Below are positions 15,859 to 63,676 of a stretch of DNA of 64,000 nt, piece by piece. This DNA comes from an uncultured virus (IMG/VR IMGVR_UViG_3300013137_000012). Lineage: Duplodnaviria; Heunggongvirae; Uroviricota; Caudoviricetes. The stretch is taken from IMG/VR virus record IMGVR_UViG_3300013137_000012. The stretch is one strand, 5' to 3'. How positions within the stretch are numbered: position 1 is the stretch's first letter; every line of letters begins with the position of its first letter. Both the position numbers and the translations under genes were made by a program. Below the pieces are notes generated by a model. That model was not told the origin of the DNA. It did no database searches and saw nothing but the letters and a program-made list of their open reading frames with translations.

Positions 15859-16239
15859 ATGAAAATTCGTAATGGTTTTGTATCTAATAGTTCTTCTGCT
15901 AGTTTTATAATAAAGTGGCAAATAGATGATGAGACATATAAACAAGCTATAGAAGATGGCATTGATGTTTTTGATAGAGCATTTTGTTTATTATTTGATG
16001 TTTATATAAAAAATTCAAAACCTAATTTTTCAATATGGAAACAAGAAGAACAGGTATATAACGATATAAAGAAACATACAATAATGGATAAAAACACATT
16101 CTGTTCTACGTTTTCTACAATTATGTTAAATAGTGTTGTGGATTTCGGTTCATCTGCCGCATATTTGTTATTAGCATTAGAAACAACCGAAGTTTCAAAT
16201 AGTGTTAAATTGATAGAAAAACATATAGAATATAGATAG
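15859..16239 (+). CDS. FVSNSSS-tag protein 1
   Basis: begins MKIRNGFVSNSSSASFII. Confidence 0.85.
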   Translation: MKIRNGFVSNSSSASFIIKWQIDDETYKQAIEDGIDVFDRAFCLLFDVYIKNSKPNFSIWKQEEQVYNDIKKHTIMDKNTFCSTFSTIMLNSVVDFGSSAAYLLLALETTEVSNSVKLIEKHIEYR

Positions 16240-16260: not shown

Positions 16261-16644
16261 ATGAAAATTCGTAGTGGTTTTGTATCTAATAGTTCCAGTA
16301 GTTCTTTTATAATTAGAGGCATAAGAATCTCAAGAGAAGAATTTGAAAAGCATATAGACTATATGCCAGAATTAAAAAAGGGCGGTGTGTTTTCTTGGGA
16401 ATTAGAAAAGAAATTACAGTTAAATATACATCCAGACACTAATTATTTTGAGCATGAGCCTGATGACGAAGTAAAAGATCTAATAGTCGGGAAGTCATTA
16501 GATAGTTTAGACGACGGTATATTCAAAGAAATATGTGAAAATCCTGAATTAGATAAAGAACTGAATAAAATCTTTGAACAACTGGGTATTCATTATAATA
16601 AGCTCTCCACATTTATTCAGTACATTAGTAATGATAATTGCTAG
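16261..16644 (+). CDS. FVSNSSS-tag protein 2
   Basis: AGGAG RBS; begins MKIRSGFVSNSSSSSFII. Confidence 0.85.
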   Translation: MKIRSGFVSNSSSSSFIIRGIRISREEFEKHIDYMPELKKGGVFSWELEKKLQLNIHPDTNYFEHEPDDEVKDLIVGKSLDSLDDGIFKEICENPELDKELNKIFEQLGIHYNKLSTFIQYISNDNC

Positions 16645-21792: not shown

Positions 21793-22371
21793 ATGAAAAC
21801 CAGAATAGGCTTCGTATCTAATTCCTCCTCTTGCTCTTTTATAGTGTCTACAAAAGAGTTTCCTACAACTTGGGATTTGGCAGACTATATGATTGAAGCA
21901 CGTTATCAATATGAGAAAAATTGTTATCAAGAAGATATTTGCTATGCCAAAAGAAATCTGCCAAAAGAACCCCTATCTGACGCCCAAAAAGAATTAATAA
22001 AAGAAGATGAAAAACTACTACAAGATAATGAAGAAATATATAAAACACTAAAATCAAATCTGTCCAAAATACTCAAAGGCGATTCTAATTTAGCATTTAG
22101 ATCAGTTAATTTTGATACTTTTATTACTCAAATTGATGTAAATGGCACTAAATATTTATATGTTTCTACATGTAATAATGTTATATGGGATATACCTAAA
22201 ACTGTTCCTAATGGTCATGGAGAAACTATTCCAGAGCTTTTTAGTTTTGGGGGGTTAGACGATGGCGAATGGGACGAAGAATATATAGAAGGCAACACTT
22301 TTATTAGATTAGACGATAATAAAGAAATAAAAATAAAAGATAGATTTGATGGATTAAATCAAAAGGAATAA
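21793..22371 (+). CDS. FVSNSSS-tag protein 3
   Basis: begins MKTRIGFVSNSSSCSFIV. Confidence 0.85.
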   Translation: MKTRIGFVSNSSSCSFIVSTKEFPTTWDLADYMIEARYQYEKNCYQEDICYAKRNLPKEPLSDAQKELIKEDEKLLQDNEEIYKTLKSNLSKILKGDSNLAFRSVNFDTFITQIDVNGTKYLYVSTCNNVIWDIPKTVPNGHGETIPELFSFGGLDDGEWDEEYIEGNTFIRLDDNKEIKIKDRFDGLNQKE

Positions 22372-34631: not shown

Positions 34632-35252
34632 ATGAACGTTGTTGAAAGACAATTAGAGGCACAACGAATAATACAACAGTTTGCGGACACATTGGCTAAT
34701 CTTAAAATTAATAGTGACTTTTCAAACATTATAGATGTGCTTATAAATTGCAAGGGTATTATAATTGTTTCAGGAATGGGTAAGGCAGGAATAGCAATGA
34801 GGAAATTTTCTTCTATACTTTGTTCTTTGGGTTTTCCTTCTACTTATTTACATCCAGGTGAAGCTTCTCATGGTGATTTGGGATTGATAAAAAAAGAAGA
34901 TGTATTGTTTATTGCAAGTACGAGTGGTAAAACAAGAGAAATATTGGAGCTTGTAGAACTCTCAAGGCATATGAGTGTTTCAAAAATAATCGGTATTACT
35001 TCTCATATAGACAGCCTAATTAGAACAAAATGTGATTACGTTTTAGATATGGGAATAATAGAAGAGGCTGGACATTTATCATTAGCACCTACTTCAAGTA
35101 TTTTAGTTATGTTGGCATTAACCGATTCACTAGCATTAATAGCAGCAAAAGAAAAAGGATTTACCACTGAAGATTATTTGTTAAGACATCATTCTGGATA
35201 TTTAGGGGAAAAGGCGCGTGAGAATATGGCAAATAACAGGAGAGAAAAATGA
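34632..35252 (+). CDS. SIS-domain sugar-phosphate isomerase (KpsF/GutQ/KdsD-like, no CBS)
   Basis: SGMGKAG, LHPGEASHGDLG, STSGKTRE, LAPTSS, HHSGYLG. Confidence 0.85.
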   Translation: MNVVERQLEAQRIIQQFADTLANLKINSDFSNIIDVLINCKGIIIVSGMGKAGIAMRKFSSILCSLGFPSTYLHPGEASHGDLGLIKKEDVLFIASTSGKTREILELVELSRHMSVSKIIGITSHIDSLIRTKCDYVLDMGIIEEAGHLSLAPTSSILVMLALTDSLALIAAKEKGFTTEDYLLRHHSGYLGEKARENMANNRREK

Positions 35253-36142
35253 ATATTTGGACATTATTAAATAGTTTAATTAAACTTATTTTTGGCAAAC
35301 CACCAGTAACCAATACTACAACTACTACTTCTACAAAAACCGAAATACCTGCGGGGAAAACAAAAATAGCACTATGTATGGGTATAAATGATTATCCTGG
35401 AACTAACAATGATTTACAAGGTTGTGTAAATGATGCAAAAGATTGGGCAGAATTATTGACGAATTGTTACGGGTTTAAAGACTGTAAAGTGCTTTTGAAT
35501 AATGCGGTTACGAAAAATAATGTTAAAAATGCTATGGAAAAAATGTTGACTGGTTCTAAGGCTGGTGATATTATGGTTATTACTTATTCTGGTCATGGAA
35601 CCTCAGTAGTAGACTCTCAAAATGATGAAATAGATGGTAAGGATGAGGCAATTTGTTTATATGATGGACTATTATTGGATGACGAAATAAGGGCTATTTT
35701 TGATAAGTTGCCAAAAGATGTAAAATTAACCTTTATATCGGATAGTTGTTTTTCGGGAAGCGTTACAAGAAGCTTTTTAAATGCAATGAACGATTTTAGT
35801 TTCTACTCAAAGCCTAAATATATGCCTCCAAAAAATGATGACGAAGCTCTTAGATTAATGATGTTGCCAGTTCTTAAGTCATTTGCATATTCGGAAAAAG
35901 ATATGAATCACTTATTAATTAGTGGCACCGATGATAAAAGCTATAGTTATGATGCAAATATAAATGGAAAACCTGCCGGTGCTTTCTCTTATTATGCAAT
36001 CAAAATATTAAAAGAAACTCCCAAAATAACTTATAATGATTTTTATAAAAAGCTAAGAACTATTCTTCCTAATTCGTCGTATCCACAGGTGCCACAGTTA
36101 GAAGGATCGGACACAAATAAAGGCGCTATGATGTTTGAATAA
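35249..36142 (+). CDS. metacaspase / peptidase C14 family
   Basis: GINDY, LQGCVNDA, YSGHG (His), DEIDGKDE, SDSCFSG (Cys), GAFS, QVPQL. Confidence 0.92.
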   Translation: MNIWTLLNSLIKLIFGKPPVTNTTTTTSTKTEIPAGKTKIALCMGINDYPGTNNDLQGCVNDAKDWAELLTNCYGFKDCKVLLNNAVTKNNVKNAMEKMLTGSKAGDIMVITYSGHGTSVVDSQNDEIDGKDEAICLYDGLLLDDEIRAIFDKLPKDVKLTFISDSCFSGSVTRSFLNAMNDFSFYSKPKYMPPKNDDEALRLMMLPVLKSFAYSEKDMNHLLISGTDDKSYSYDANINGKPAGAFSYYAIKILKETPKITYNDFYKKLRTILPNSSYPQVPQLEGSDTNKGAMMFE

Positions 36143-36331: not shown

Positions 36332-36365
36332 GCTGGCAAAGATGGAAGAACTATCTGGAGGAACT

Positions 36366-37202
36366 ATGTACAACGATTTTAAACCCGATATAAGTTTTGA
36401 AAAATACTCAGAATATATGAAAAAGTATCCCTTATTGACCGAACAAGCTGAAAGAAGTATTGTTAATAAATTGTTTTTTGGTAATGATACTGAAAGACAA
36501 ATATCTCGTGAACAATTAATAAATCATAATTTAGGACTTGTAACTAAAGAAGCTCTTAGATACCATTATAGGTTTTCCGGTAATTATGTAGCAAAAATGG
36601 ATTTGGTTAATGCTGGTATTGTCGGTCTTATAGATGCCGTTGATGCCTTAGACCCCTCATATAAAAACAGATTTAGTACATTCGCAACCTATAGAATACA
36701 TTTTAGAATAGCTGAATATGTTCGTTTATTTATGCAACCAGTTAATTATCCCAATAATATTGTTTTAAGCCTAACAAAATATCGTAGAATCAAAGAGCAG
36801 TACGATATCAATAAATTTACGGACGAATCAATTGCGAATAAATTGGGTATCACTAAAAACGAACTATTACTATTGAAAAGACTAGATAGTACAAGATACA
36901 TATCGCTTGCTGAAAGAAATAATAGTTCTGATAGTTCTGAAAAAATCCAATTAATAGAAGATAAAACGGCTATTCAAGCTTATACACATATAGAAAACGG
37001 AGAAACAAAAGAGGTAATTGAAAAATTAATGTCAAGATTAAACGATATAGAAAAAGATATTATTAAGTCACATTTTTTAGATAATGATACTCAAACTTTA
37101 GAAGAAATAGGTAGTAGATATGGAGTATCTAAAGAACGCATAAGACAAATTGAAAACAAGGTTCTATCACTATTTAGAAAGAGAATAAAGAAGTTGTTGT
37201 AA
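36366..37202 (+). CDS. RNA polymerase sigma-70 family factor 1
   Basis: REQLINHNLGLV, DLVNAGIVGL, RFSTFA, QTLEEIGSRYGVSKERIRQIE; GGAGG RBS. Confidence 0.92.
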   Translation: MYNDFKPDISFEKYSEYMKKYPLLTEQAERSIVNKLFFGNDTERQISREQLINHNLGLVTKEALRYHYRFSGNYVAKMDLVNAGIVGLIDAVDALDPSYKNRFSTFATYRIHFRIAEYVRLFMQPVNYPNNIVLSLTKYRRIKEQYDINKFTDESIANKLGITKNELLLLKRLDSTRYISLAERNNSSDSSEKIQLIEDKTAIQAYTHIENGETKEVIEKLMSRLNDIEKDIIKSHFLDNDTQTLEEIGSRYGVSKERIRQIENKVLSLFRKRIKKLL

Positions 37203-37211
37203 GAAAGACAT

Positions 37212-38138
37212 ATGCCAAATAAATCATTAAATAAATATATTGAAAGTATTAAGAAGTATTCTCGTATAGATAGAACAAAAGAGATATCTCTGTCTAAAAT
37301 TATTCAAACCAGTCATAATACTATTGATATAAACGAAGCTATTAAGCAGTTGACCGAAGCAAATTTGTTATTGGCTTTAAAACATGCTTTTTCTTTTAAT
37401 TGGGCTATAAAAAACAGCAGACAGTTTTCAATATTAGATTTGGTTTCTGAAGCTAATATTGGGTTATATGAAGCTGCAAAACACTATGATGCTCAAAAAA
37501 ATCCGAACATTAATTTTTGTGGGTATGCTATTAAAATTATAGATAACGCGATTATTAATGCAATTCAGAAAAATGGCTTTATAAGAGTTCCAACACATCA
37601 TTTCAAATACTATTCTGAAATTAAAAAAATATTAAACGAATTTGGAGACGAGATAAAAAGTTCGTTTATTTTAAATAGACTAAAAAATCATAAAAAGAAG
37701 ATTTCTGTTAAATTTATAGATATGATTAGACAGGAAATTAAGGCTTCTATTATATCTTTGGATTCAGATCCTTTAATAATGAATTTGGCTAATATTGACT
37801 CTAGCCCATCTAAAAATATGGAAGAAATAGAACGCAAGAACGGTATAGAAAGTATTTTGAAAAATCTTAATGAAAAAGAAAAAGACATTATTATTTGTCA
37901 TTTCTATAAAAACGAAACCTTTGAAGCAATAGCAAGGAAATACGGAGTGACCAGACAGTATATCTCAATTTTAACCAAAAATGTACTTAGGAAGTTGAAA
38001 AATAAAATAAAGGGGAAAAGGGAAATAAATGAAAACAATAAACGAACAAAGTGTTTTACCAGTTTTACCAACAGAAGAAACTATAAAATCAGACAAAGCG
38101 CAAAATTCGTTCAACAACTTATTAAAAACTCATTTTGA
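37212..38138 (+). CDS. RNA polymerase sigma-70 family factor 2
   Basis: LTEANLLL, DLVSEANIGL, IRVP, region-4 HTH ETFEAIARKYGVTRQ. Confidence 0.88.
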   Translation: MPNKSLNKYIESIKKYSRIDRTKEISLSKIIQTSHNTIDINEAIKQLTEANLLLALKHAFSFNWAIKNSRQFSILDLVSEANIGLYEAAKHYDAQKNPNINFCGYAIKIIDNAIINAIQKNGFIRVPTHHFKYYSEIKKILNEFGDEIKSSFILNRLKNHKKKISVKFIDMIRQEIKASIISLDSDPLIMNLANIDSSPSKNMEEIERKNGIESILKNLNEKEKDIIICHFYKNETFEAIARKYGVTRQYISILTKNVLRKLKNKIKGKREINENNKRTKCFTSFTNRRNYKIRQSAKFVQQLIKNSF

Positions 38139-41259: not shown

Positions 41260-43161
41260 ATGAAAGACGACATACAAAAATACATCTATGACGAAAAAAC
41301 GCTTTCTTGCTATGCTAAGGAAGTGGCCGAATATCCTCGTATTACTCCGGAAAGAGAAATAGAACTGTCTAAAATAATTATTAATAAGAAACAACCAAAA
41401 AATAAAAGGGATAAAGCTAGAAATGAATTAGTTCTTGCTAATTTAAAATTAGTGTTAATGTGTGCCCGAAATTATCACAAAGATCATTTCTATCTAAACC
41501 TTTGTGATTTGATTCAATATGGTAACGTAGGGTTGATACAAGCCGCTATGCATTTTGATTGGCGTAAGGGTTTTAGGTTTTCAACATATGCTGTTACATG
41601 TATAAAAAGGAATATTGACGAAACCGTTTTTGCTGAAGATAACGAGATTAGATTCCCTGATAATTACAATGAATACATAAAGAAGATTAATGCGTTGGAA
41701 GGCGATTATGGTCCTAATTTGCCCTTTCATTTCTTAAGCGAAAAGATCGGTGTAAGTATAAATGTAGTTAAACAAGCTTTAAAAATAAGACAATATAAGA
41801 TGTTATATTTAAATGCTACGATTAGTGGTGAAGATAATTCGGTTGATTTTAATAATGTCATAGAAGATACTAGTTCGCCAGATCCATTAATGTTACTTGA
41901 AGATAAACAAACTAAAGACCGTGTAATTGATATAATTGAAAAAATGCCACGTCAGGATCAGGTAGTTGCTTTTAAGAGATTATTTGGGGATATAAAAGAT
42001 CAACATAGTCTTCAATATATTGCCGACGAGTTTGATCTTACAAAAGAATCTGTTAGGTTAAAGGAAATTAAAGCTTTCAATACTATTAAAAAGGAATTAA
42101 AAATAGAAAATAATAATGAGGACTTGCGAAATATGGGCAAGTATAGAAGTCTAAATCCGTGGACAGAAAAAAACAGAAGCAGACGTATTAAAAGAGATAT
42201 TAAAAAGGGGTTGTTGCCATTGCCGTATTTGTCTTTTCCCGAATTATCTGATATCTCTGATAAAATAAGGGCTAAAATTACAAAAAATATTCCGATGAGA
42301 CTATCGGAAATGATTAAGTCACTAAAGAAAATATCTTCCACTGAATTAGGTTATAGACTTACAAAAGTAGTGCAAAACGATTCAAGAATAGATGTGTTTT
42401 TACCAAAAGAGTTTTATCATGCACTTAAAGCAAAAAAGTGGATCGCTGTTTTTAATAAAGAAGATGACGATTTTCTATTATTTAATGTTTTTCGCGGTAA
42501 TAAATGGCTGGCGAAAAACATGTATTGCAAACCTAAACACATAACTTGTCGTTTACGAAAACTAAATATCAGTTCAAATTATAAAGGTTATACACCGAAA
42601 GAAATAGAGTTTTTGATTAAATATAAGGATGCTGAATGGAGCTTTTTGACATCATCTCTACATAGAACAGTAGATAGTATGAAAAATAAACTTGTAAGAT
42701 TGAATATTACTAGAAAATATGTTCGTAAATATGAGACTCCAAAAGAAATTGAGATAATAAAAAATAATCCAAATAGAACCTGTTCGGATTTTGTAAAAAT
42801 GTTCGGGTGGAAAAGAAGTAAGGTAAAATATCATGTTAGAAAAAACAATATTAAACTCGCTGTTGTATGTGTACAAAAAAAATATAATTCGGAAGAAGAT
42901 AGTTTTATAAAAGAAAACTATTTAAAACAAACGTGTAAATGGGTTGCTAATAAATTAAATCGTACTGTTGCCTCTATTAGTAAAAGAATGGCGATATTGA
43001 ATTGCAAGAAGGTTATAAATCATCAATATACCACAAAAGAACTTGAATTTATTCGCAATAACACAGATAAGGGTTATGTTAATATGGCTAAAATATTAAA
43101 TATAAAGCCTAAAACGCTACATAGAAAATTAAGAAGGATGAAAATTCCATGCCGTCCATAA
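41260..43161 (+). CDS. sigma-70 family factor 3 with long C-terminal HTH/Myb-like repeat extension
   Basis: ARNELVLANLKLV, DLIQYGNVGLIQA, FDWRKGFRFSTYA, region 4; then repeats Y(T/N)xxExxF(I/L)...L.RT..S. Confidence 0.88.
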   Translation: MKDDIQKYIYDEKTLSCYAKEVAEYPRITPEREIELSKIIINKKQPKNKRDKARNELVLANLKLVLMCARNYHKDHFYLNLCDLIQYGNVGLIQAAMHFDWRKGFRFSTYAVTCIKRNIDETVFAEDNEIRFPDNYNEYIKKINALEGDYGPNLPFHFLSEKIGVSINVVKQALKIRQYKMLYLNATISGEDNSVDFNNVIEDTSSPDPLMLLEDKQTKDRVIDIIEKMPRQDQVVAFKRLFGDIKDQHSLQYIADEFDLTKESVRLKEIKAFNTIKKELKIENNNEDLRNMGKYRSLNPWTEKNRSRRIKRDIKKGLLPLPYLSFPELSDISDKIRAKITKNIPMRLSEMIKSLKKISSTELGYRLTKVVQNDSRIDVFLPKEFYHALKAKKWIAVFNKEDDDFLLFNVFRGNKWLAKNMYCKPKHITCRLRKLNISSNYKGYTPKEIEFLIKYKDAEWSFLTSSLHRTVDSMKNKLVRLNITRKYVRKYETPKEIEIIKNNPNRTCSDFVKMFGWKRSKVKYHVRKNNIKLAVVCVQKKYNSEEDSFIKENYLKQTCKWVANKLNRTVASISKRMAILNCKKVINHQYTTKELEFIRNNTDKGYVNMAKILNIKPKTLHRKLRRMKIPCRP

Positions 43162-53451: not shown

Positions 53452-53727
53452 ATGTCAACCAAAGTAGTCCATTGCAAAAAAGAAAAATATGATGTTTATA
53501 TTGGTCGTCCTTCTAAATGGGGAAATCCTTTTGAAATTGGCAAAGATGGAAATAGAGAAGAAGTGATTGAAAAATATAAAGAATGGATAAAAAATCAACC
53601 AGAATTGTTAAAAGATTTACCGGAACTAAAAAACAAAATATTAGCTTGTTGGTGCGCTCCTAAAGCTTGTCATGGAGATATTTTAGCGAAATTAGCAGAC
53701 GACTGTTCTGTAGTACGTCACGAGTAA
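53452..53727 (+). CDS. DUF4326-like protein
   Basis: YDVYIGRPSKWGNPF ... LACWCAPKACHGDIL. Confidence 0.85.
   Translation: MSTKVVHCKKEKYDVYIGRPSKWGNPFEIGKDGNREEVIEKYKEWIKNQPELLKDLPELKNKILACWCAPKACHGDILAKLADDCSVVRHE
53706..53716 (+). promoter_or_regulatory. TTCTGTAGTAC upstream motif, copy 3
   Basis: 49 nt before -35 box TTGCCT (53755); -10 TATCCT at 53778. Confidence 0.65.
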
Positions 53728-53805
53728 ATAAAATCTTTTTCTATTATTTTGTTATTGCCTTGTTAATGCCTGTGTGCTATCCTCGTGTCAAAGATGGGGG
53801 ACAAC

Positions 53806-54906
53806 ATGGATAAATACGAATATATTATTGATGGTAAGAGGTATGTAATTGCTGAAGATAAAGACAATAAGTACGCTATTAGTGACTCCTATAATTATCA
53901 CTTTAATAAGCGTAATGGGTTTTTTGCCAGATGGGGTAAAAATGAAAAAGACGATCCTGCATTTAGTCCTGTTGGCGGCGAGATACTTGATATAGAAATT
54001 ACCACTATATGCCACGGAATAAGAAATAGAGAGACGAATAAACAAATATTGTGTCCGTTTTGCTACAAATCTAATACTCCTAATGGCAAAAATATGTCGT
54101 TTGAAACATTTAAAAAGATTATAGACAAAATTCCTAAAACACTAATGCAAGTAGCTTTTGGTTCAGATAGCCAAGCAACATCTAACCCTGATTTATGGAA
54201 AATGGCAGAATATTGTAGGTCTATTGGCGTAGTTCCTAATATTACTGTTGCGGATATTTCAGATGAAACGGCAGACAAATTATCTAAGGTGATGGGTGCC
54301 GTTGCTGTTTCGCGTTATAATGATAAAAATGTTTGTTATGATTCTATTAAGAAACTTGTAGATAGAAAAATGACGCAAATAAATATGCATTATATGATAA
54401 GCGAAAACACTTATGATGCTTGCCTAGAAACGCTTAAAGATATAAAAACAGATAATCGTTTAAAAGGTCTTAATGCCATCGTATTGTTATCCTTAAAAAA
54501 GAAAGGCAGAGGAACTGGTTTTACTAGTCTTTCACCAGATAAATATGCCTATATAGTTAATTACTGTCTTGAAAACAATATAAATTTTGGTATGGACAGT
54601 TGTGGGGCTAAAAAATTTCTAGATGCCGTAAAAGATAATCCTAGATATGAAGAGTTTAAAATAGTGGCCGAACCTTGTGAATCTACGAATTTCTCCCAAT
54701 ACTGTAGCGTTGATGGAGAATTTTTCCCTTGTTCTTTTTGTGAAGGAACTGAAGGGTGGGAAAAGGGTATAGATATGACATGCGATAATTTTGATTATTT
54801 TAAAGATTTATGGTATAACGAGAGGGTTGTAGAATTTCGTAATAAACTAAATTATAACTGTAATAATTGCCATAAAGCACGAGAATGTCCGATATATCAA
54901 ATATAA
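53806..54906 (+). CDS. radical SAM enzyme with SPASM/Twitch domain
   Basis: DIEITTIC-x13-CPFCY cluster motif, MSFETFKKII, PNIT; C-terminal PCES..DGEFFPCSFC..CNNC....CP. Confidence 0.85.
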   Translation: MDKYEYIIDGKRYVIAEDKDNKYAISDSYNYHFNKRNGFFARWGKNEKDDPAFSPVGGEILDIEITTICHGIRNRETNKQILCPFCYKSNTPNGKNMSFETFKKIIDKIPKTLMQVAFGSDSQATSNPDLWKMAEYCRSIGVVPNITVADISDETADKLSKVMGAVAVSRYNDKNVCYDSIKKLVDRKMTQINMHYMISENTYDACLETLKDIKTDNRLKGLNAIVLLSLKKKGRGTGFTSLSPDKYAYIVNYCLENNINFGMDSCGAKKFLDAVKDNPRYEEFKIVAEPCESTNFSQYCSVDGEFFPCSFCEGTEGWEKGIDMTCDNFDYFKDLWYNERVVEFRNKLNYNCNNCHKARECPIYQI

Positions 54907-54948
54907 ATTGACAAATAATAAAAACGTATATAATTATAAGGAGCAATT

Positions 54949-55611
54949 ATGAATGCAATATCGCGTAATTATTTGTTAGACTTTATAGTAATAATAATCG
55001 CCGTATGTTATTCTTACTTTTATTGTCCAGCAGAAAAAGATGTTTGGGATAGTGCTAATGTGGCTTCTTTGATGATGTTGAGCGGTGCATTATGGTTTTT
55101 CTTTTCATTATTCAAATTGGGAGAGATATATACTAAATTTTTAAGTATATTCTCTGCTTTAGCTTTATTTATTATTGGTTATATATGGCACGATATAGGA
55201 TTATTTAGTTCTTTTTGGATATTGGGTATTGTTATTATAGTAGTAAGTTATTGGATAACGCCGTTTTTAGAGATGGGTGGATGTGGATTTAAACGATTTT
55301 ATGCTTTTTTTGTTCTAAGTGGATTTATATTGTTAATTGTAGGCTATTCATTAAAAGGATTTGACAAGCCCTATAATAGCGATGATAGTAAAATATGGAA
55401 TAAACCGGATAAAATCTCTAATTATCTTGATGAAAATTGTAACAAAATACCTGATTGTTGGGAAGAAAGTAGTCATGCCAATTATTATCGTGATTATTCT
55501 CAATCTGTATTTGCAATAGATTATGATAAGTTTAAGAAAGAACGCCCTCAACAATATGAAGAGACAATGAGAGTATTGAACGAAAGAGCACTTCAATTAA
55601 AACAAGAATAA
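54949..55611 (+). CDS. multi-pass membrane protein
   Basis: several hydrophobic helices in the N-terminal 135 aa. Confidence 0.6.
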   Translation: MNAISRNYLLDFIVIIIAVCYSYFYCPAEKDVWDSANVASLMMLSGALWFFFSLFKLGEIYTKFLSIFSALALFIIGYIWHDIGLFSSFWILGIVIIVVSYWITPFLEMGGCGFKRFYAFFVLSGFILLIVGYSLKGFDKPYNSDDSKIWNKPDKISNYLDENCNKIPDCWEESSHANYYRDYSQSVFAIDYDKFKKERPQQYEETMRVLNERALQLKQE

Positions 55612-55626
55612 ACTTTTTGATTTATA

Positions 55627-55655
55627 TTGCATAGTTCTTTGGAGTGTGGTAGAGT
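55627..55655 (+). promoter_or_regulatory. class A promoter TTGCAT-17-TAGAGT (ext. TG) heading the FVSNSSS cluster
   Basis: 17-nt spacer, TG at 55647. Confidence 0.6.
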
Positions 55656-55688
55656 GATTGTAAAGATGGATAAAACATAGGAGAAAAT

Positions 55689-56198
55689 ATGAAAATACGT
55701 AATGGTTTTGTAAGTAATTCAAGTTCAAGTTCTTTTTTACTATTTGCTGAGAAATTGAATTCTTTGCCTAGTAAATTTGAACCTAAAATACTTGTAGTTG
55801 ACGATGATACTGAAAGTAATGATGGGGGCGTATTTATTTATGAATTAGATAAAGAAATGTATAATATGGCAAAGGCAAATATTAACTTGTTACATCTTAA
55901 AGGCTTGAGATTTTTTAGAGATATCGGATCTGTTAATGAGGGCGGCAAATTAACTTTTCAAGAAATTGACGAGAAAACAAAGAATATTACAGGTGAGCGA
56001 AGGAAAAACATAGTTGTAGAGAATTTTACTACCGATATTAACGTTCCTTATGATGCTAACGAACTACGTGAATTTTATGATTTAATGAATGCCGAAGAAA
56101 TTGCAGCAGAAAAAGAGCGTATAAAGAAAGAGCGTGAAGAGCTTGAAAAGAAAGAAAGAGCTGAATTGGAAAGACTTACAAAGAAGTATAATAAGTAA
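55689..56198 (+). CDS. FVSNSSS-tag protein 4
   Basis: begins MKIRNGFVSNSSSSSFLL; AGGAG RBS. Confidence 0.85.
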   Translation: MKIRNGFVSNSSSSSFLLFAEKLNSLPSKFEPKILVVDDDTESNDGGVFIYELDKEMYNMAKANINLLHLKGLRFFRDIGSVNEGGKLTFQEIDEKTKNITGERRKNIVVENFTTDINVPYDANELREFYDLMNAEEIAAEKERIKKEREELEKKERAELERLTKKYNK

Positions 56199-56207
56199 AG
56201 GGAGATT

Positions 56208-56516
56208 ATGAAAATACGTAATGGATTTGTATCTAATAGTTCTTCTGCTAGTTTTGTAGTTTACTGGCGTTGTAATGAGGCAGTAAATAAAGATGTCGAT
56301 ATTGGAGGTCTTATTTCTGGTTCTCATTTAGAAGATATTAAAAAGTGTACTGAATCAACTGCATCTAATGGGGTATATAAAACACATGGATTTACTTCAA
56401 TGTATAATGACGAAAATGATATTCCCGCAAAACTGGCATATTTGGTTTTAGCTCTTACAATTCATAGAGGAAAATACGAGTTGATAGATTTTAATATAGA
56501 AAATGATGGGGATTAA
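56208..56516 (+). CDS. FVSNSSS-tag protein 5 (paralog of 15859)
   Basis: begins MKIRNGFVSNSSSASFVV. Confidence 0.85.
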   Translation: MKIRNGFVSNSSSASFVVYWRCNEAVNKDVDIGGLISGSHLEDIKKCTESTASNGVYKTHGFTSMYNDENDIPAKLAYLVLALTIHRGKYELIDFNIENDGD

Positions 56517-56710
56517 TATGAAAACGCCTAGAACAGATTCAATAGCTTGCGACATATCACAATACTTTACGGACCTTAAAACAGGTAATAGACCCCAAAT
56601 ACAAAGAATGGTAGTTCCAGCTTCTTTTGCACGTAAATTAGAAATAGAAATAAGAAAATTAAAAAACCTTCTAAAACCAGTGGATATGAATGATATGGTT
56701 GAGGTTTAAT

Positions 56711-57262
56711 ATGAAAATTCGTAATGGTTTTGTTAGCAACTCAAGCTCTTCTAGTTTTATTGTTAAATACAGTGAAACAACCTATGAGAAGTTAACAGAT
56801 CCAAAGCCAAAAAAGAAGAAAATCGTTTATTATTTAATTCCTGAAGAGCTTAAATTACTTGAAAAATCTGGATTTAAAAAAACCGCTATGAATAGTCCAA
56901 CGGCTTATGAGTTTTTGCCCGAAAAAGAATTTGAAAATAAAAAGACTCAAAACAAATTTTTTAAGAATTATTGGTGTAATTTGGCATATAATATAACATG
57001 TAATCAGGATGATGTGATTTGCTTTTTACTTAAAAATAATATAGGTTTTACTGCTTCTTGTCATTATGGGCACGAAAGTGTGTTTTATAAAAAGGACGAA
57101 GAATATTTCTATATTATCCCAAATTTAGGTTTAAGTTTTGAGACATATGGAATCGACGACAAACATATGGAAATGTTCAAAGACTCTAAAATTCAAAAAA
57201 TTAAAGTTGTAGATTTTATTAAAGATTATGACGAACTAATAAAAAGGACAAATGAAAACTAA
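56711..57262 (+). CDS. FVSNSSS-tag protein 6
   Basis: begins MKIRNGFVSNSSSSSFIV; GAGG RBS. Confidence 0.85.
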   Translation: MKIRNGFVSNSSSSSFIVKYSETTYEKLTDPKPKKKKIVYYLIPEELKLLEKSGFKKTAMNSPTAYEFLPEKEFENKKTQNKFFKNYWCNLAYNITCNQDDVICFLLKNNIGFTASCHYGHESVFYKKDEEYFYIIPNLGLSFETYGIDDKHMEMFKDSKIQKIKVVDFIKDYDELIKRTNEN

Positions 57263-57723
57263 AACTATATTAATGTGTTGTGTTATATTTCTAAGTTATT
57301 GTGCCACAGAACCTTATGATGTAAAACAAGTGGTAGGAAAAGCTAAAACCGAATATACTTATAATGTGAACTATTTTGAAAAAGCACCCGATTGTCCTGT
57401 GTGTAATGAGGATGGAAATTATTTGGATTCAAGAAAAGTAAATTCTGATAATATTGTAATAATTCATAGATTTAATTGTATAGATGGACATAAATGGATT
57501 ATAAAAGATATAAAAGATGGCTCTAAAGAAACGGTTGTAATAAAATGAAATCAAAAAGAATATGTAATCTTTGTAAGCGTAAGTCTTTTGACAATTTAAC
57601 TACGATAGCAGATCCCGTTGGTACTAGAATTATAAATATTTGTGATACTTGTGTGGCAAATCTAAATATTGCTTTTTGGAATGAATATCATAGAATACAA
57701 AAGAAGGCGGGAATATATAATAT

Positions 57724-58383
57724 ATGAAAATAAGAAACGGATTCGTAAGTAATAGCTCTTCTTCTTCATTTATTGTGCTTTTGAAACATAAGCCTAAAGA
57801 TGTCAAAGATTTAATGAATATGCTTTTCCCCGATTTTGAACCAGATTATCAAATTACAGGCGAAATAGAAGACGTAGTTAAACCTATTACAGTTGAAGAA
57901 GTGTGTGCTAGAGTGTTCCAAGATATTATCCATAAACAAAAAGGAAGATATAACTGTTATAGCCTACAAGAAGCTATGGGAGGATATATAACCGAAGTAG
58001 ACGAAGAATCTATTGTAAAACTCTATGATAAAAGCTATGCCGAAGCTAATAGTATTGAATGTAATCTTTGGAACGAATTGAATAGAAAATGTAATCCCAA
58101 AGGCACAGATTTAGATTACGGTAAGCTTATAATACTGTTTAAAAAAGAAAAAGAACTATACAAAAAATGGCATTTAGCTAAAAAAAACGATGAAAAAGCC
58201 AGAAAAGAATGGGAAAAAGAAAGAAAAAAAGAAACAAAAGAATTCTATAACAAATTCAAAGCTAAATACCCCAAACATAAATTTGAATGTGTACTGGAAT
58301 ATGGAGATAGACACGGTGAATATGTATTAGAAACAGGCGATATCTTCAGGAATGTACCACATATAACAATAAGTAATCACTAA
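57724..58383 (+). CDS. FVSNSSS-tag protein 7 (paralog of 58778)
   Basis: tag plus C-terminal GDIFRNVPHITISNH. Confidence 0.85.
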   Translation: MKIRNGFVSNSSSSSFIVLLKHKPKDVKDLMNMLFPDFEPDYQITGEIEDVVKPITVEEVCARVFQDIIHKQKGRYNCYSLQEAMGGYITEVDEESIVKLYDKSYAEANSIECNLWNELNRKCNPKGTDLDYGKLIILFKKEKELYKKWHLAKKNDEKARKEWEKERKKETKEFYNKFKAKYPKHKFECVLEYGDRHGEYVLETGDIFRNVPHITISNH

Positions 58384-58392
58384 GGAGAAAAT

Positions 58393-58776
58393 ATGAAAAT
58401 AAGAACAGGGTTTGTAAGTAATAGTAGCTCTTCTAGTTTTATAATTGCTATAGATATTACTAAAAATAAACCCTGTCCTCATTGTGGCAGAAGTAATCCA
58501 GATATTTTGGCATTAATAGAAACTGCTTCTTGTGAAAGTGAAGACAACGATGTAAACGCTATTGGATATGATGATGTAATGAAATCTTTTAAAGAAAATA
58601 CATGGAGGTCCGAAGAAGAAATAAAAAAACTTATAAGTAAAATTGAAGAATATGAAAGCAATCCTAAGTATAAAATGGCTAGTATTAATATTTCTTATCA
58701 TAATGAAGCTTTGAATACTATATTAAATACAATGGTTAAAAACAAAGAGGTTATAATAGTTAGCAAAGGGGATTAA
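58393..58776 (+). CDS. FVSNSSS-tag protein 8
   Basis: begins MKIRTGFVSNSSSSSFII; CPHC. Confidence 0.85.
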   Translation: MKIRTGFVSNSSSSSFIIAIDITKNKPCPHCGRSNPDILALIETASCESEDNDVNAIGYDDVMKSFKENTWRSEEEIKKLISKIEEYESNPKYKMASINISYHNEALNTILNTMVKNKEVIIVSKGD

Positions 58777-58777
58777 T

Positions 58778-59599
58778 ATGAAAATACGTAATGGTTTTGT
58801 ATCTAATTCAAGCTCAAGTTCTTTTGTGGTAGTATTTCCTAGAAAACCAGAAAATACTAAAGATGTAATGGAATTTATGTTTAATGGTAAAGAAGGTGGT
58901 ATATCTGTTTATGATTTAAATGGGTTGTCTCATTCCCAAATAGCTGAAAGGGTTTTTAGAGATATAGAACATAGTGGTTTTAAAACAGCAACAAAATCAG
59001 AAATAATTGATCGGTTTTCGGGTCGTTATAATTATTATATTGATAGTTATAGTTTAATGTTTTTTAACAACATAACAAAAGATACGTTAGGTGGGGCATG
59101 GGATGAAAAAATTGGTAAATATTGTGGTTCTAATATCAAAAATCTGGACAAATTACGCAATATGGTTATAGAACACGAAAAAGAACAAAAAAGAATTAAT
59201 ACTAGACAGTCTGAAATTATAAAAGATTCTGGTATTAATTGCGATATACCATGTGCTTATAAGGGTGGCACAAATCCTATTACCAAAAACCCCTATACGT
59301 CACAAGATATTGAAAAATGGGAAAAACACCACAAAGAGATTGAAGATTATAAGAAAAACAACAAGGAATATCAGAAACTTGAAAAAGAATACGAAAAATC
59401 ATTTGAGGATTATGGAAAACAACACAAATTAAGAGAAATAATTGCTGCGGAAGACGCCGAAGTATTTTTGAAAGATTATGATACACAGTTCATATTTATT
59501 GTTGAATATTCTGATAATGATGAGGGAGATGTCGGAACAACTTTGGAGCATGGTGATATTTTTAGGAATGTACCGCATATAACAATCAGTAATCATTAA
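58778..59599 (+). CDS. FVSNSSS-tag protein 9
   Basis: tag plus C-terminal GDIFRNVPHITISNH. Confidence 0.85.
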   Translation: MKIRNGFVSNSSSSSFVVVFPRKPENTKDVMEFMFNGKEGGISVYDLNGLSHSQIAERVFRDIEHSGFKTATKSEIIDRFSGRYNYYIDSYSLMFFNNITKDTLGGAWDEKIGKYCGSNIKNLDKLRNMVIEHEKEQKRINTRQSEIIKDSGINCDIPCAYKGGTNPITKNPYTSQDIEKWEKHHKEIEDYKKNNKEYQKLEKEYEKSFEDYGKQHKLREIIAAEDAEVFLKDYDTQFIFIVEYSDNDEGDVGTTLEHGDIFRNVPHITISNH

Positions 59600-59609
59600 A
59601 GGAGAAAAC

Positions 59610-60167
59610 ATGAAAATACGTAATGGATTCGTATCAAATAGTAGCTCTTCTAGTTTTATTGTAAGTGGCACAGATATTAAAGAAATTGCCACTTCAATGC
59701 TGGATATTGTTGTAGAAGACTTTTCAGAATGGAATGAAAATAGCAAAGAACGATTAAAGATATATGGTAAATGGCAAAAAAACCTACAAACAATCTTCAA
59801 ATTAAATAACAAAGACATATTAGAAGGTAAAATTGGCGTGTGTTTTCCTTCTACTAACTATGACACCTATATATTACTAAAAGATGAAGACATTATACAT
59901 GTTGATACCTGTAATAATCATTCATGGGACCTAAATACATGGAGAGAACTGGATTGTAATGAAATAGAAGGCATGAATGATTTTTTATATTTTGATGTGG
60001 CGATTAATAAGCTTAGAAAAAAACTAGACTATTATATACACGATCATAATAATAAGACCAAAATAGTAAAAACCTGTAGTTGTGATATTTATACGTATTA
60101 CCATGACGCAAAAGACTACCCAATTTGTCCTGAATGTGGCAAGAAAATTAAAATTGTTGAAAAATAG
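59610..60167 (+). CDS. FVSNSSS-tag protein 10 (paralog of 21793)
   Basis: tag; S.N.DT.I and TCNN..WD shared with 21793; C-terminal CPEC. Confidence 0.85.
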   Translation: MKIRNGFVSNSSSSSFIVSGTDIKEIATSMLDIVVEDFSEWNENSKERLKIYGKWQKNLQTIFKLNNKDILEGKIGVCFPSTNYDTYILLKDEDIIHVDTCNNHSWDLNTWRELDCNEIEGMNDFLYFDVAINKLRKKLDYYIHDHNNKTKIVKTCSCDIYTYYHDAKDYPICPECGKKIKIVEK

Positions 60168-60226: not shown

Positions 60227-60655
60227 ATGTTCAGGTTCATAAGAAGTTGGATTCTGCCTATTATAGTAGTAACCGCACTATTATATTTAAGCGGAGAAAT
60301 TGAGACATTAAAACAACTGCCAGAATTAGAACAAGTTGCTGCATTTTCGTTTTTAGTATGTATCTCCACAATATTTTCACCTTCTAGTAGACTTCTAACA
60401 GCTCCTACTTTTGTTATAACTATTACTTGTTTGTTTTTTAATAACGGCGATTATTCTTTAGGCTATGTTTTTTCTGGAATATTTTGTACAATAATTGCCT
60501 TAATAGTATTACCCCATATAACAGAATTAAAAGAAAATGATGAAATAGACATATATAGTTATCAATTAGGTAAAATTGTAAATACTATAATGTTAATTTA
60601 TGGTATATTTGCATTAATATGTGGATTCACTAATATAACAAACTTTACTAAATAG
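60227..60655 (+). CDS. membrane protein
   Basis: multiple hydrophobic helices; AGGAG RBS; class A promoter at 60175-60203. Confidence 0.6.
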   Translation: MFRFIRSWILPIIVVTALLYLSGEIETLKQLPELEQVAAFSFLVCISTIFSPSSRLLTAPTFVITITCLFFNNGDYSLGYVFSGIFCTIIALIVLPHITELKENDEIDIYSYQLGKIVNTIMLIYGIFALICGFTNITNFTK

Positions 60656-60662
60656 GCGATAT

Positions 60663-61094
60663 ATGTTTGGAAGATTATTGCTTTCTTTAATACTGTTGCC
60701 ACTATGTAGCTTGTTACTTTTGACATTTTTAGGTGGCGATAATTTTAACTACATGAATGAGTTAGGACAAACTTATGCGGTTTGTGCATTTTGGTTATTT
60801 GGTTCTGTGTTAGCATTTTTACCATCATATATTAAATTTCCAAATATTCTAATATCTCTAACTATTTTTATATTCATGAGCATTGTAAATAGTGTCGGAT
60901 TATTTACTGGATTAATTGTTTTAGGAGTATTTATTATAATTGTTTTGAGCATGTTGACTTCATTATTTGAATTACTTGATTTTGATGAAATAAAACCGTT
61001 TTTAATGTTGATTTTTATAATTGGTATAGGGTGTATTATCGTTGGAATATGTTTTAACCGATATGATGTCGCACTACACTTTTATCAATTATAA
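60663..61094 (+). CDS. membrane protein
   Basis: multiple hydrophobic helices. Confidence 0.6.
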   Translation: MFGRLLLSLILLPLCSLLLLTFLGGDNFNYMNELGQTYAVCAFWLFGSVLAFLPSYIKFPNILISLTIFIFMSIVNSVGLFTGLIVLGVFIIIVLSMLTSLFELLDFDEIKPFLMLIFIIGIGCIIVGICFNRYDVALHFYQL

Positions 61095-61984: not shown

Positions 61985-62398
61985 ATGGATATTCAAAATC
62001 CCTCAAAACAATATAAAAAATCTAATACAGCAATTTATTCTTGTCAATATCATGTTGTTTTCTGTCCTAAGTATAGAAGAAGTATTTTTGTCGATGGAAT
62101 CGACAAAAGACTTAAACAACTTGTTCGTGAAAAATCTAAAATATGGAATTATGAAATATTAGATATGGAAGTAATGCCAGATCATGTTCATTTACTTCTT
62201 GATATTAATCCCAAAATTGGTATCTATAATGTTATTAATCATATTAAGGGTTATGCTTCTAAGGTATTGAGAAAAGAATTTCCAAGTCTTAAGACTCGAC
62301 TTCCGTGTTTATGGTCAAGAAGTAAGTTTATCAGTACAGTAGGTGCCGTTAGTCTAGAGACGGTTAAAAAATATATTGAGAATCAAAAAGGAAAATAA
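61985..62398 (+). CDS. tnpA: IS200-like Y1 (HUH) transposase
   Basis: YHVVFCPKYRR, MPDHVHLL (HUH), KG.AS, LWS, KKYIENQ. Confidence 0.95.
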   Translation: MDIQNPSKQYKKSNTAIYSCQYHVVFCPKYRRSIFVDGIDKRLKQLVREKSKIWNYEILDMEVMPDHVHLLLDINPKIGIYNVINHIKGYASKVLRKEFPSLKTRLPCLWSRSKFISTVGAVSLETVKKYIENQKGK

Positions 62399-62401
62399 CA
62401 C

Positions 62402-63676
62402 TTGACAAAATCTGATATAATCAAAGAAACACTGAGACAAACACGATTAAAACGATCAACTCAAGATTGTAAGGTTTTTGAATTAAAAATAGATACTTCG
62501 CATATTTCTAACAAAAAACTCAATGATCTAAAACTTCTTTTTACTGAATCAAAATGGCTATATAATCATATTCTAAATCAGAAAAATATCTTTGATTTTG
62601 ATACTAAAATAAGCGTGGTACAAGCATTAGATAAAGATAAAAATACTGTTGATAAAACACTATCAATAATTGGATCTCAAATTAAACAATCAATACATTC
62701 AAGAATTATAGATTCTATAATAGCATTATCAAAACTAAAAGAAAAACACTATAAAGTTGGAAAACTTAAATTTAAATCCAGAATAAAATCTATTCCTTTA
62801 AAACAATACGGAGTAACTTTTAGATTTAATCCAACCAAACCAAACTATATAAAATTTCAAAACATTAAAGGTTATTTTAAGCTTAATGGTATTAAACAAA
62901 TTCCACAAAATGCAGAAATAACAAATGCTATTTTAATTAATAAAAATAATAACTATTATATCAAATTAACTTGTTATATACAAAAAGAAACCAAGAATTT
63001 TTTAGAAAAAGAAATAGGAATAGATTTTGGAATTCAAGATAATATCGTATTGTCTAATGGAGAAAAATTCAATATCAACATTCCAGAATCTACAAGAACT
63101 AGAAAACTAAGACGTAAATTATCTAGAAAACATGGATATAAAAAAGGACAGAAGAAATCCAAATCTTTTTATAAAAATCTAAATTTGATAAACGCATCTA
63201 TAGATAAAATCAATAATCAAAAGAAAGATTGCAAAAATAAAATTGTATCAAAAATAGTAAATAACTATGAAACAGTATGTGTTCAAGATGAAAATATTAA
63301 ACAGTGGAAAGATGGGATGTTCGGTAAGCAAGTTCACAATTCTGTTTTGGGAGGAATAATGAAAGATTTGTGTGTCAAATCTCATACTCTCAAAATAGTT
63401 GATAAGTATATGCCTACAACTCAATTATGTCCCGTTTGTTTTAAGCTAAATAAGATTAGTTTGAAACAAAGAGAATATATTTGTGAGTGTGGTTATAAAA
63501 ATGATAGAGATATTCATGCCGCTCAGAACATATTGAATATTGGCATGAACAGACTTGATATTAATAAAGTGTCTACGGAGTATAGACACTATAAATCTCC
63601 GATGGAGGGAATAGTCTCTGCTGTTGATTTAAACAGCAAGCTGTTTCTGTTGAAGTCGGAAGCCAACGTCCTTTAG
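62402..63676 (+). CDS. tnpB: TnpB RNA-guided nuclease family protein
   Basis: IGIDFG (RuvC-I), VQDENI (RuvC-II region), TTQLCPVC..CECG, DRDIHAAQNI (RuvC-III). Confidence 0.92.
   Translation: MTKSDIIKETLRQTRLKRSTQDCKVFELKIDTSHISNKKLNDLKLLFTESKWLYNHILNQKNIFDFDTKISVVQALDKDKNTVDKTLSIIGSQIKQSIHSRIIDSIIALSKLKEKHYKVGKLKFKSRIKSIPLKQYGVTFRFNPTKPNYIKFQNIKGYFKLNGIKQIPQNAEITNAILINKNNNYYIKLTCYIQKETKNFLEKEIGIDFGIQDNIVLSNGEKFNINIPESTRTRKLRRKLSRKHGYKKGQKKSKSFYKNLNLINASIDKINNQKKDCKNKIVSKIVNNYETVCVQDENIKQWKDGMFGKQVHNSVLGGIMKDLCVKSHTLKIVDKYMPTTQLCPVCFKLNKISLKQREYICECGYKNDRDIHAAQNILNIGMNRLDINKVSTEYRHYKSPMEGIVSAVDLNSKLFLLKSEANVL

Follow-up and report, generated by a model that had tools for sequence, protein, structure and literature searches.

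We investigated a stretch of 64,000 nucleotides from an uncultured virus of the Caudoviricetes (IMG/VR record IMGVR_UViG_3300013137_000012), referred to below as the window, in which a gene for a radical S-adenosylmethionine (SAM) enzyme (53806..54906, + strand) lies upstream of a run of genes whose products all start with one 16-residue peptide, MKIRxGFVSNSSSxSF, here called the tag. The enzyme and its N-terminally tagged client proteins probably form a two-component protein-modification module. Their pairing recurs in hundreds of phages, so that the tag is most likely the handle of the enzyme as well as its modification site. Four results shown in silico carry this reading, namely the co-occurrence of the two genes, the fixed N-terminal position of the tag, the fold class of the enzyme and a predicted interface between the two partners; from them we infer that the tag is a substrate rather than a handle alone, and the same holds for all of the chemistry proposed below. 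A search of open-access papers and bioRxiv found no paper describing the tag or the tag-enzyme pair.

The N-terminal tag and the proteins that carry it

A six-frame scan of the window for the core GF[VIL][STA]NS[ST] gave ten matches, all on the + strand and each five residues past an ATG. The corresponding open reading frames (ORFs) start at 15859, 16261, 21793, 55689, 56208, 56711, 57724, 58393, 58778 and 59610, the ten starts listed by the first-pass annotation made from the letters of the window, and each is preceded by a GGAG-type ribosome-binding site. With a looser pattern only one chance match, on the other strand, was added, and there is no eleventh real copy in the window. Thirteen of the 16 tag positions are invariant in the ten copies (M1, K2, R4, G6, F7, V8, S9, N10, S11, S12, S13, S15 and F16). 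Over the 48 nucleotides (nt) that encode the tag, the mean identity is 73.6% for the DNA versus 92.2% for the peptide, and 279 of the 664 codon pairs specifying the same residue use differing codons, serine being encoded by TCN or AGY and arginine by CGT or AGA. The peptide is conserved and the DNA is not, so selection acts on the tag peptide, in agreement with what had been read from the codon switches alone.

Seven of the tagged genes form a run from 55689 to 60167, which starts 782 nt past the stop of the enzyme gene (54906 to 55689), against a first estimate of about 0.8 kb, while the remaining three lie 32-38 kb upstream. The run opens with a 169-residue protein with an acidic coiled-coil tail and a singleton body (55689..56198). 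It is followed by a 102-residue paralogue of the 15859 product (56208..56516), a 183-residue protein (56711..57262), a 219-residue protein whose body family ends in LExGDIFRNVPHITISNH and also includes KP15_102 from Klebsiella phage KP15 (57724..58383), a 127-residue protein with a CPHC motif (58393..58776), a 273-residue paralogue of the 57724 product (58778..59599) and a 185-residue paralogue of the 21793 product with a C-terminal Cys4 zinc-ribbon-like end (59610..60167). The distant genes encode proteins of 126 residues (15859..16239, about 38 kb upstream of the enzyme), 127 residues (16261..16644) and 192 residues (21793..22371), the last with the tag variant MKTRIGFVSNSSSCSF. All ten are on the + strand. 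A gene for a five-helix membrane protein (54949-55611) separates the enzyme gene from the run, and three small untagged ORFs are scattered within it.

Across phages, a methionine stands exactly five residues before G6 in 594 of 623 tag occurrences, corresponding to 402 unique proteins of 18-390 residues (median 130). Twenty further occurrences have no upstream methionine; those printed have leucine or valine in its place, which suggests TTG or GTG starts. Among the 402 proteins G6, F7, N10 and S11 are present in every one, followed by S12 (401), R4 (400), S9 (397), K2 (394), V8 (384), S15 (380) and F16 (375, with tyrosine in 26). When position 7 was left free, 410 of the 412 unique tags had an aromatic residue there (F 399, Y 5, H 5 and W 1; L and M once each), and under the looser pattern G6 was replaced by S, C or A in 17 of 412. 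The tag contains no conserved cysteine. A profile built from the ten proteins of the window, and dominated by their tag, matched 19,235 representatives of 50%-identity clusters at E <= 0.001 and 215 at 1e-10, and the match begins at residue 1 in 138 of the 150 representatives listed. Six of the other 12 listed carry two tags, and all six internal tags keep a methionine or valine of their own, as expected for two adjacent tagged genes read as one. Such two-tag predicted proteins (P0246, P0248, P0251, P0253, P0254, P0259 and P0339) are, on their sequences, probably adjacent genes merged by a lost stop or by another genetic code. The cluster representative P0339 also shows a further tag variant, with D6 and T9.

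Behind the tag the proteins differ. After removal of residues 1-20, clustering by BLAST sorted 387 proteins into 115 body clusters, 79 of which are singletons, and profile-profile comparison (hhalign) of the 17 largest clusters related one of 136 pairs at a probability of at least 90% and three at 50%. The earlier statement that most bodies in the window are unrelated was thus nearly right, with three paralogue pairs (57724/58778, 59610/21793 and 15859/56208) to be set against it. The bodies are strongly acidic (median isoelectric point 4.54; 88% of the 387 under 5.5). None of the 115 body representatives matched Pfam at 1e-4, NCBIfam gave nothing for the two tagged proteins tried, and PADLOC gave no match for the four tried, three from the window and one from a bacterial locus (L163, see below). 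All seven tagged proteins submitted to PHROG matched phrog_7397, five of them only in its first 18-34 positions; this family, like phrog_7293 to which the enzyme belongs (E 5.9e-101), is labelled 'unknown function'. No C-terminal motif shared over the bodies was found among the 115 representatives. The last residue is glycine in 19 and cysteine in 13 of these 115, an excess over the 6% and 1.8% that these residues make up in the bodies as a whole.

Metagenomic relatives of the 57724/58778 family number 201, and apart from the tag the family keeps its C-terminus (...YSDxDG...LEHGDIFRN...ISxH), with an invariant histidine as last residue. An AlphaFold2 (AF2) model of 57724 has an overall predicted local distance difference test (pLDDT) score of 82.8, falling to a mean of 48 for residues 1-10, and contains a long helical hairpin insert. 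Foldseek searches with this model gave no match at E <= 0.001 in the PDB or in BFVD, and the profile of the 58778 family gave nothing under E 0.24 among PDB sequences. The best VIA-align match (Z 7.8) covers only the generic helical hairpin, residues 89-173, and was rejected. For two bodies the ESM Atlas holds unnamed, virus-only clusters of similar predicted structure (template modelling score, TM, 0.57-0.71), which makes a small alpha/beta core shared by part of the superfamily possible.

The radical SAM enzyme

The window contains a single copy of the enzyme gene. The ATG at 53806 is a plausible start, with a Shine-Dalgarno-like GGGGGA 5 nt upstream, and a GTG at 53785 and an ATG at 53794 are alternatives; residue numbers below are counted from the GTG at 53785, and 7 is to be subtracted for the 53806 start. 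The three cysteines of the SAM-cluster motif, C76, C90 and C93, are invariant in 35 of 35 enzyme sequences. Their spacing is CX13CX2C in the window enzyme and ranges from CX3 to CX8 at the first interval in homologues, most of which have CX3CX2C. The N-terminal part carries the conserved block YNYxFNxxxGFFxRWG.

Only four auxiliary cysteines are conserved in the family, C273 (DSC273), C298 (C298ES), C316 (PC316SF) and C368, and the additional ones of the window enzyme, e.g. C319, are not. Four conserved cysteines would suit a twitch-like rather than a full SPASM domain. The twitch domain holds one auxiliary cluster, with BtrN, MoaA, SkfB and TqqB as examples; the four cysteines fit such a single cluster, and SkfB is among the top structural matches. 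The seven-cysteine SPASM motif (including CX2CX5CX3C) is absent from the enzyme, and Pfam SPASM (PF13186) scores 14.6 bits, under its cut-off of 21.5. Therefore, of the earlier assignment to a radical SAM protein with a C-terminal SPASM/Twitch cysteine cluster, the radical SAM part stands and the full SPASM domain does not; judged from the cysteine pattern, the C-terminal domain looks twitch-like.

At the sequence level the enzyme is nearly unclassified. Pfam Radical_SAM (PF04055) gives 13.4 bits for the window enzyme versus a cut-off of 29.5, which the homologue from L163 exceeds with 51.5 bits. NCBIfam has no family for it (only a weak NirJ2 match, 17.7 bits), PADLOC gave no match, and nothing under E 0.3 was found among PDB sequences. 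The family is large: at E <= 1e-10 it comprises no fewer than 2,703 clusters at 90% identity, almost none of which has a name. The AF2 model is confident (pLDDT 94.5; predicted TM score 0.91) and shows a partial (beta/alpha)6 TIM barrel, preceded at residues 9-50 by five beta strands and no helices. Foldseek returned 158 PDB matches at E <= 0.001, of which the top 50 are all radical SAM enzymes, and the best folds all belong to maturases of peptides or proteins: SuiB (E 8e-10), TigE, CteB, SkfB, anSMEcpe, PqqE and EpeE. The enzyme thus models as a peptide-maturase-like radical SAM fold. The N-terminal part contains no winged helix, and no RiPP (ribosomally synthesised and post-translationally modified peptide) recognition element (RRE) family was matched in Pfam or NCBIfam.

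Several enzyme genes appear to be interrupted. At L039:6237-7298 an in-frame TGA falls exactly at the conserved tryptophan of the RWG block; this phage may read TGA as tryptophan, or the gene may be broken. In L008, L009, L011 and L036 the enzyme matches lie in two pieces, about 0.9-1.4 kb apart, a layout that suggests an intron, an intein or a homing-endonuclease insertion. The enzyme gene of Vibrio phage D479 directly adjoins one for a homing endonuclease. The Escherichia phage RB43 record NC_007023.1 (92712-93858; L211) has the enzyme annotated as two ORFs (169c and 168c), covering 88% of the query, and a second RB43 record, HE981739, has it whole, so that the split would be a frameshift or a sequencing difference. 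A tag-enzyme fusion considered in L051 was rejected, as a stop codon separates the tagged gene from the enzyme gene.

Distribution and co-occurrence of tag and enzyme

The first-pass annotation had set co-occurrence and proximity beforehand as a test of the pairing, and we searched in both directions. The string GFVSNSSS is rare, being encoded by 521 IMG/VR stretches among 2.9 million viral contigs. Confirmation of 99 of these left 72 loci, which hold 338 motif copies, 1-14 per locus. An enzyme homologue lies within 10 kb of the tag in 43 of these 72 loci. Starting instead from an alignment of 35 enzyme sequences, 200 of 230 stretches were confirmed and 80 loci kept. A strict tag was found within 10 kb in 74 of the 80, always on the same strand as the enzyme and in arrays of 1-13. 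Two loci that were at first tag-negative, L139 and L141, have four tags with histidine at position 7, which brings the count to 76 of 80, and in another tag-negative locus, L097, the sequence ends 2 kb beyond the enzyme. The arrays are mostly downstream of the enzyme and upstream in others, e.g. L104, L107, L124, L129, L131 and L134. The linkage therefore held in both directions under changing arrangements, and an independent occurrence of the tagged proteins and this enzyme family was not borne out.

Clustering the ORFs of 81 loci placed the enzyme in 80 and the tag family in 73, the next family reaching only 13. No third conserved gene (protease, transporter or partner) was found among these loci. 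With only the enzyme and the tag family widely shared, the pair behaves as a two-component unit in changing surroundings. For 10 of the 29 tag loci with no nearby enzyme, mostly those on longer contigs, the enzyme was sought over the whole contig, and four carry it elsewhere. No complete genome with tags and without the enzyme was found, a comparison limited by contig completeness.

The pair also occurs in cultured phages. The enzyme is present in 172 GenBank phage records at 42-47% identity, including Klebsiella phages KP15 and KP27, Cronobacter phage GAP161, Citrobacter phage CfP1, Escherichia phage RB43 and Vibrio phage D479, which has five tagged genes 2-11 kb from the enzyme. KP15_102, of the same body family as 57724, was found in 175 records, with a host distribution almost the same as that of the enzyme. 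A term search of the KP15/KP27 genome paper (PMC5219037) gave no mention of the enzyme in the text so covered.

In a set of one genome for each of 185,579 species, 13 loci matched the tag pattern, all of them in metagenome-assembled genomes of unrelated phyla. Most are phage-like arrays, e.g. with 12 tags in L153 and 14 in L159. Two Acidobacteriota loci differ in having a tight four-gene operon (L163:6736-11502 and L164:6757-11484) that encodes a 959-aa STAND NTPase (SMEK_N + NACHT; Avs2-like in PADLOC), a 128-aa protein, a tagged protein and the enzyme. The L163 operon lies on a 1.47-Mb contig and is flanked by integrase-like genes. Between the two genomes the four components are 40, 36, 61 and 58% identical. 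These enzyme homologues are 26-30% identical to the window enzyme, and the tag beside them is almost unchanged. In a sample of Acidobacteriota the enzyme was present in 2 of 401 genomes. It is possible that this operon is a defence system that uses the tag-enzyme pair.

The window itself is a large, AT-rich, phage-like genome (31% GC, with 103 of 109 ORFs on one strand), and its tag copies lie amid replication and transcription genes, not structural genes. Of the three sigma-70-like proteins that it encodes (36342-38138 and 41260-43161), two come from adjacent genes and the third is a 633-aa protein with sigma region 2; a caspase-like C14 peptidase (35249-36142) and a 689-aa AAA+/M41 FtsH-like protein (29928-31997) are encoded nearby. 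AAA+ proteins and a DHH phosphoesterase are further products of the window. An IS200-type Y1 transposase gene (61985-62398; PF01797, E 1e-40) precedes a short ORF (63317-63676) whose product has a Cas12f1-like/TnpB zinc-finger (TNB) domain, and together they are an IS200/IS605-type element within the phage genome. Directly upstream of the enzyme gene lies a gene for a DUF4326 protein (53452-53727, E 8e-31), which is not a conserved neighbour elsewhere. Three small multi-helix membrane proteins flank the tag array (54949-55611, 60227-60655 and 60663-61094) and are absent from the genes shared by the other loci. Between 53000 and 61500, promoter-like sites were not above shuffled sequences, and terminator-like sites numbered zero.

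Proposed function of the pair and rival explanations

Modelling of the enzyme together with the tag, another check proposed at the outset, was performed with the enzyme alignment and residues 1-40 of the 57724 family, alongside three controls. The complex reached an ipSAE (interface score derived from predicted aligned errors) of 0.85 (runs at 0.88, 0.84 and 0.85) compared with 0.01 for the best control, and passed a mark that is reached by 116 of 157 solved complexes, as against 2 of 215 mismatched pairs. At least 61% of the contacts agree between runs, with a partner pLDDT of at least 56. The predicted interface consists of tag residues 1-19, threaded into the conserved barrel of the enzyme. 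K2-R4 pair with enzyme residues 46-50 and K2 is near residues 293-296; F7 is near Q122, N152 and G171/A172; the rest of the tag touches barrel strands and the DSC273, C298ES and C316S segments. Invariant or near-invariant positions make up 31 of the 57 interface residues versus 33 of the 316 others (Fisher p 9e-13). In one lineage (L139:9493-12226; also L141 and L173) all four tags have H7 and the enzyme has serine in place of Q122, the predicted contact of residue 7, which is invariant in 35 of 35 other enzymes. This correlation is an independent hint for the complex model.

Considering these data, we propose that the enzyme would capture the free N-terminal ~19 residues of each tagged protein. 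M1-R4 would add a strand to the conserved GFFxRWG strand of the enzyme (residues 45-51), with K2 beside E296, and G6-F16 would enter the partial TIM barrel and lie with the site of the SAM cluster on one side and the single auxiliary Fe-S cluster on the other, the aromatic residue 7 sitting in a pocket lined by Q122, N152 and G171/A172. The 5'-deoxyadenosyl radical would then abstract a hydrogen within the invariant core F7-V8-S9-N10-S11-S12, and the same modification would be put on every client, probably before the client folds. As to its nature, a cyclophane of the triceptide type, in which C-beta of S9 would be joined to the ring of residue 7, is our leading and still tentative guess. Oxidation of a serine, as by anSME, and epimerisation, as in EpeE, are each doubtful and on a par with one another, and an ether or other crosslink is more doubtful again; some other chemistry takes what is left.

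The systems nearest to this pair are the leader-guided maturases SuiB-SuiA, CteB-CteA and SkfB-SkfA. They share with it the partial TIM barrel with a C-terminal Fe-S domain, as the best structural matches, the predicted strand-addition binding of the peptide by the N-terminal part with the peptide reaching into the barrel, and the clustering of the enzyme gene with substrate genes. In contrast to them, the enzyme has no sequence-level membership and its N-terminal part is all-beta instead of a winged-helix RRE; the clients are whole proteins of 80-390 residues from at least 115 unrelated families and not short precursors; and the conserved tag, which begins at residue 1, is where the reaction is predicted, whereas a leader precedes a variable core in those maturases. 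A comparable economy is known from ProcM and the prochlorosins, where one modifying enzyme serves many products sharing a conserved N-terminal recognition peptide. However, ProcM is a lanthipeptide synthetase that modifies the variable part and the leader is cut off, whereas in the present pair the reaction is predicted in the conserved peptide, and what varies is an entire protein.

The anaerobic sulfatase-maturating enzymes AtsB and anSMEcpe likewise act as one enzyme on many whole proteins, each at a short Ser/Cys motif close to its N-terminus, and anSME is a structural neighbour of the enzyme model (4k39, E 4e-8). Modification of whole proteins by these radical SAM enzymes, and abstraction of the serine C-beta hydrogen, are established (PMC10114670). 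Nevertheless, their target motif (C/S)-x-(P/A)-x-R is not in the tag, as GFVSNSSSSSF has no Pro/Ala-x-Arg after any serine; anSME has two auxiliary clusters, whereas this family keeps only four auxiliary cysteines; and sulfatases are one homologous family, unlike the unrelated tagged bodies. Triceptide synthases (XyeB, FxsB, HaaB and HtkB) act on aromatic-X-X motifs, in which they join the ring to C-beta of residue three, and they accept H, F and W in exchange for one another at the first position (PMC11499958). F7-V8-S9 of the tag fits this motif, and the F, Y, H or W found at residue 7 in 410 of 412 tags agrees with that tolerance. On the other side, no sequence membership was detected and no family model matches the enzyme, and triceptide precursors are short, with leaders and an often repeated motif, unlike the tagged proteins. 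A RiPP-like radical SAM enzyme that modifies a protein-sized neighbour is on record in CrpC-CrpA of Methanococcus voltae (PMC13692751). There, one cysteine-rich substrate family is modified by a full SPASM enzyme with three clusters through thioether chemistry, whereas the tag has no conserved cysteine. On defining features the system fails membership of the SPASM enzymes, the RRE-bearing maturases and anSME. It is set apart by a peptide fixed at residue 1, by this peptide being the predicted reaction site, and by very many unrelated carriers.

Several observations weigh against a modification module. Enzyme and tag are not always close: KP15 and RB43 have one pair of tagged genes each, about 20 kb from the enzyme, and L109, L140 and L152 have the enzyme with no tag within 10 kb. 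Six of the ten tag contigs searched throughout, all fragments 12-51% complete, have no enzyme. Many loci come from related phages, so that part of the co-occurrence is shared ancestry, and the Q122S/H7 change is a single evolutionary event. The complex was folded with neither SAM nor Fe-S clusters, and residue 7 may therefore occupy cofactor space; the partner pLDDT is only 56-61; and because our own alignments were supplied, the calibration of the complex score is only rough. Solved maturase-peptide complexes exist (SuiB-SuiA 5v1t, anSME-peptide 4k39 and CteB 5wgg), so the pass may partly reflect likeness to them. In the 57724 model residues 13-20 form a confident core strand beside two C-terminal strands, which means that the enzyme would need to act before folding or on an unfolded end. 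Moreover, ten clients bearing one identical modification have no obvious common need for it.

These points bear on what else the tag could be. It could be a docking handle only, with the tagged proteins as adaptors, regulators or plugs, which might e.g. recruit further targets or turn the enzyme off, and the true substrate elsewhere, in a nucleotide, a host protein or the client body. The complex prediction gives a binding geometry and not a chemistry, ten bodies on one handle resemble interchangeable specificity subunits, and the bacterial enzyme weakly matches viperin-type profiles. Nonetheless we regard docking alone as unlikely, since the tag is predicted inside the catalytic barrel, touching family-invariant residues, since the nearest folds are maturases that modify the very peptide they bind, and since the near-total invariance of nine consecutive small or aromatic residues exceeds what docking usually needs. 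The core strand of 57724, which pairs with the C-terminal strands, together with the similar virus-only ESM Atlas clusters for two different bodies and the paralogy of several window copies, would also suit a single family of phage paralogues that diverges fast and has the motif as its opening structural element, with the enzyme as merely an old syntenic neighbour. The first-pass annotation had named an integral strand of one shared fold as the outcome that would undo its proposal, and this is not simply what was found: the bodies fall into 115 clusters with one of 136 profile pairs detectably related, and the most conserved residues, 1-12, are the unstructured ones (pLDDT 48 over residues 1-10). 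The linkage also survives gene-order inversion, separations of 20-160 kb and transfer into bacterial operons with different neighbours, and synteny alone does not account for an invariant tag at 26% enzyme identity, so that we give common descent of the carriers very little weight.

A sorting signal read by another machine is just as improbable. T4 internal proteins carry an N-terminal capsid-targeting sequence, and the tag would look similar, being a portable peptide confined to the N-terminus of small unrelated proteins, whose arrays vary and some of which occur in T4-like phages. However, only the enzyme travels with the tag, and no protease, portal or transport gene does; the tag occurs on a single protein in bacterial STAND operons where there is no virion; and the window copies lie away from the structural genes. 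This alternative, which the first-pass annotation had kept beside its proposal, gained no support. Slightly less probable still is that the enzyme works as an activase and creates a stable glycyl radical at G6. Glycyl radical enzymes have a C-terminal RVxG[FY] fingerprint to which R4-x-G6-F7 is loosely similar, G6 is kept in all 402 strict tags and precedes an aromatic residue, and radical SAM activases act on whole proteins. Yet the known activases have no twitch or SPASM domain, whereas this enzyme has a C-terminal Fe-S domain; the glycine of their targets is near the C-terminus in a large shielding barrel, whereas that of the tag is residue 6 with arginine at -2; S, C or A replaces it in 17 tags of the looser pattern; and small unrelated bodies offer no common shield. 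The first proposal, a shared substrate or recognition peptide of the enzyme, is thus the one that co-occurrence, unrelated bodies and the predicted complex support in silico, and every refuting condition stated for it that computation can address turned out in its favour.

The clients are small, strongly acidic, fast-diverging accessory proteins, and this make-up, together with the bacterial version in STAND operons, points to phage-host conflict. In its widest form, the modification module would rest on a portable 16-residue N-terminal 'radical handle', by which one twitch-type enzyme puts the same covalent mark, perhaps a Phe7-Ser9 cyclophane, on thousands of unrelated small acidic proteins and so arms, stabilises or addresses effectors of phage-host conflict; we put this a little below an even chance. 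As the pair occurs in cultured phages of laboratory hosts, it is directly testable, RB43 offering one enzyme and two tagged proteins. If the module is real, the 16-residue tag and one enzyme would make a tool for site-specific protein modification, and dark-matter phage genes would gain a shared biochemical handle for their study. The mark would be a new post-translational modification, carried by a very large part of the phage accessory proteins that is so far wholly unannotated. Found from RB43 to half-megabase phages, the system would be to whole proteins what combinatorial RiPP biosynthesis is to peptides, with the conserved peptide as reaction site, and its bacterial version in STAND NTPase operons suggests a link to immunity.

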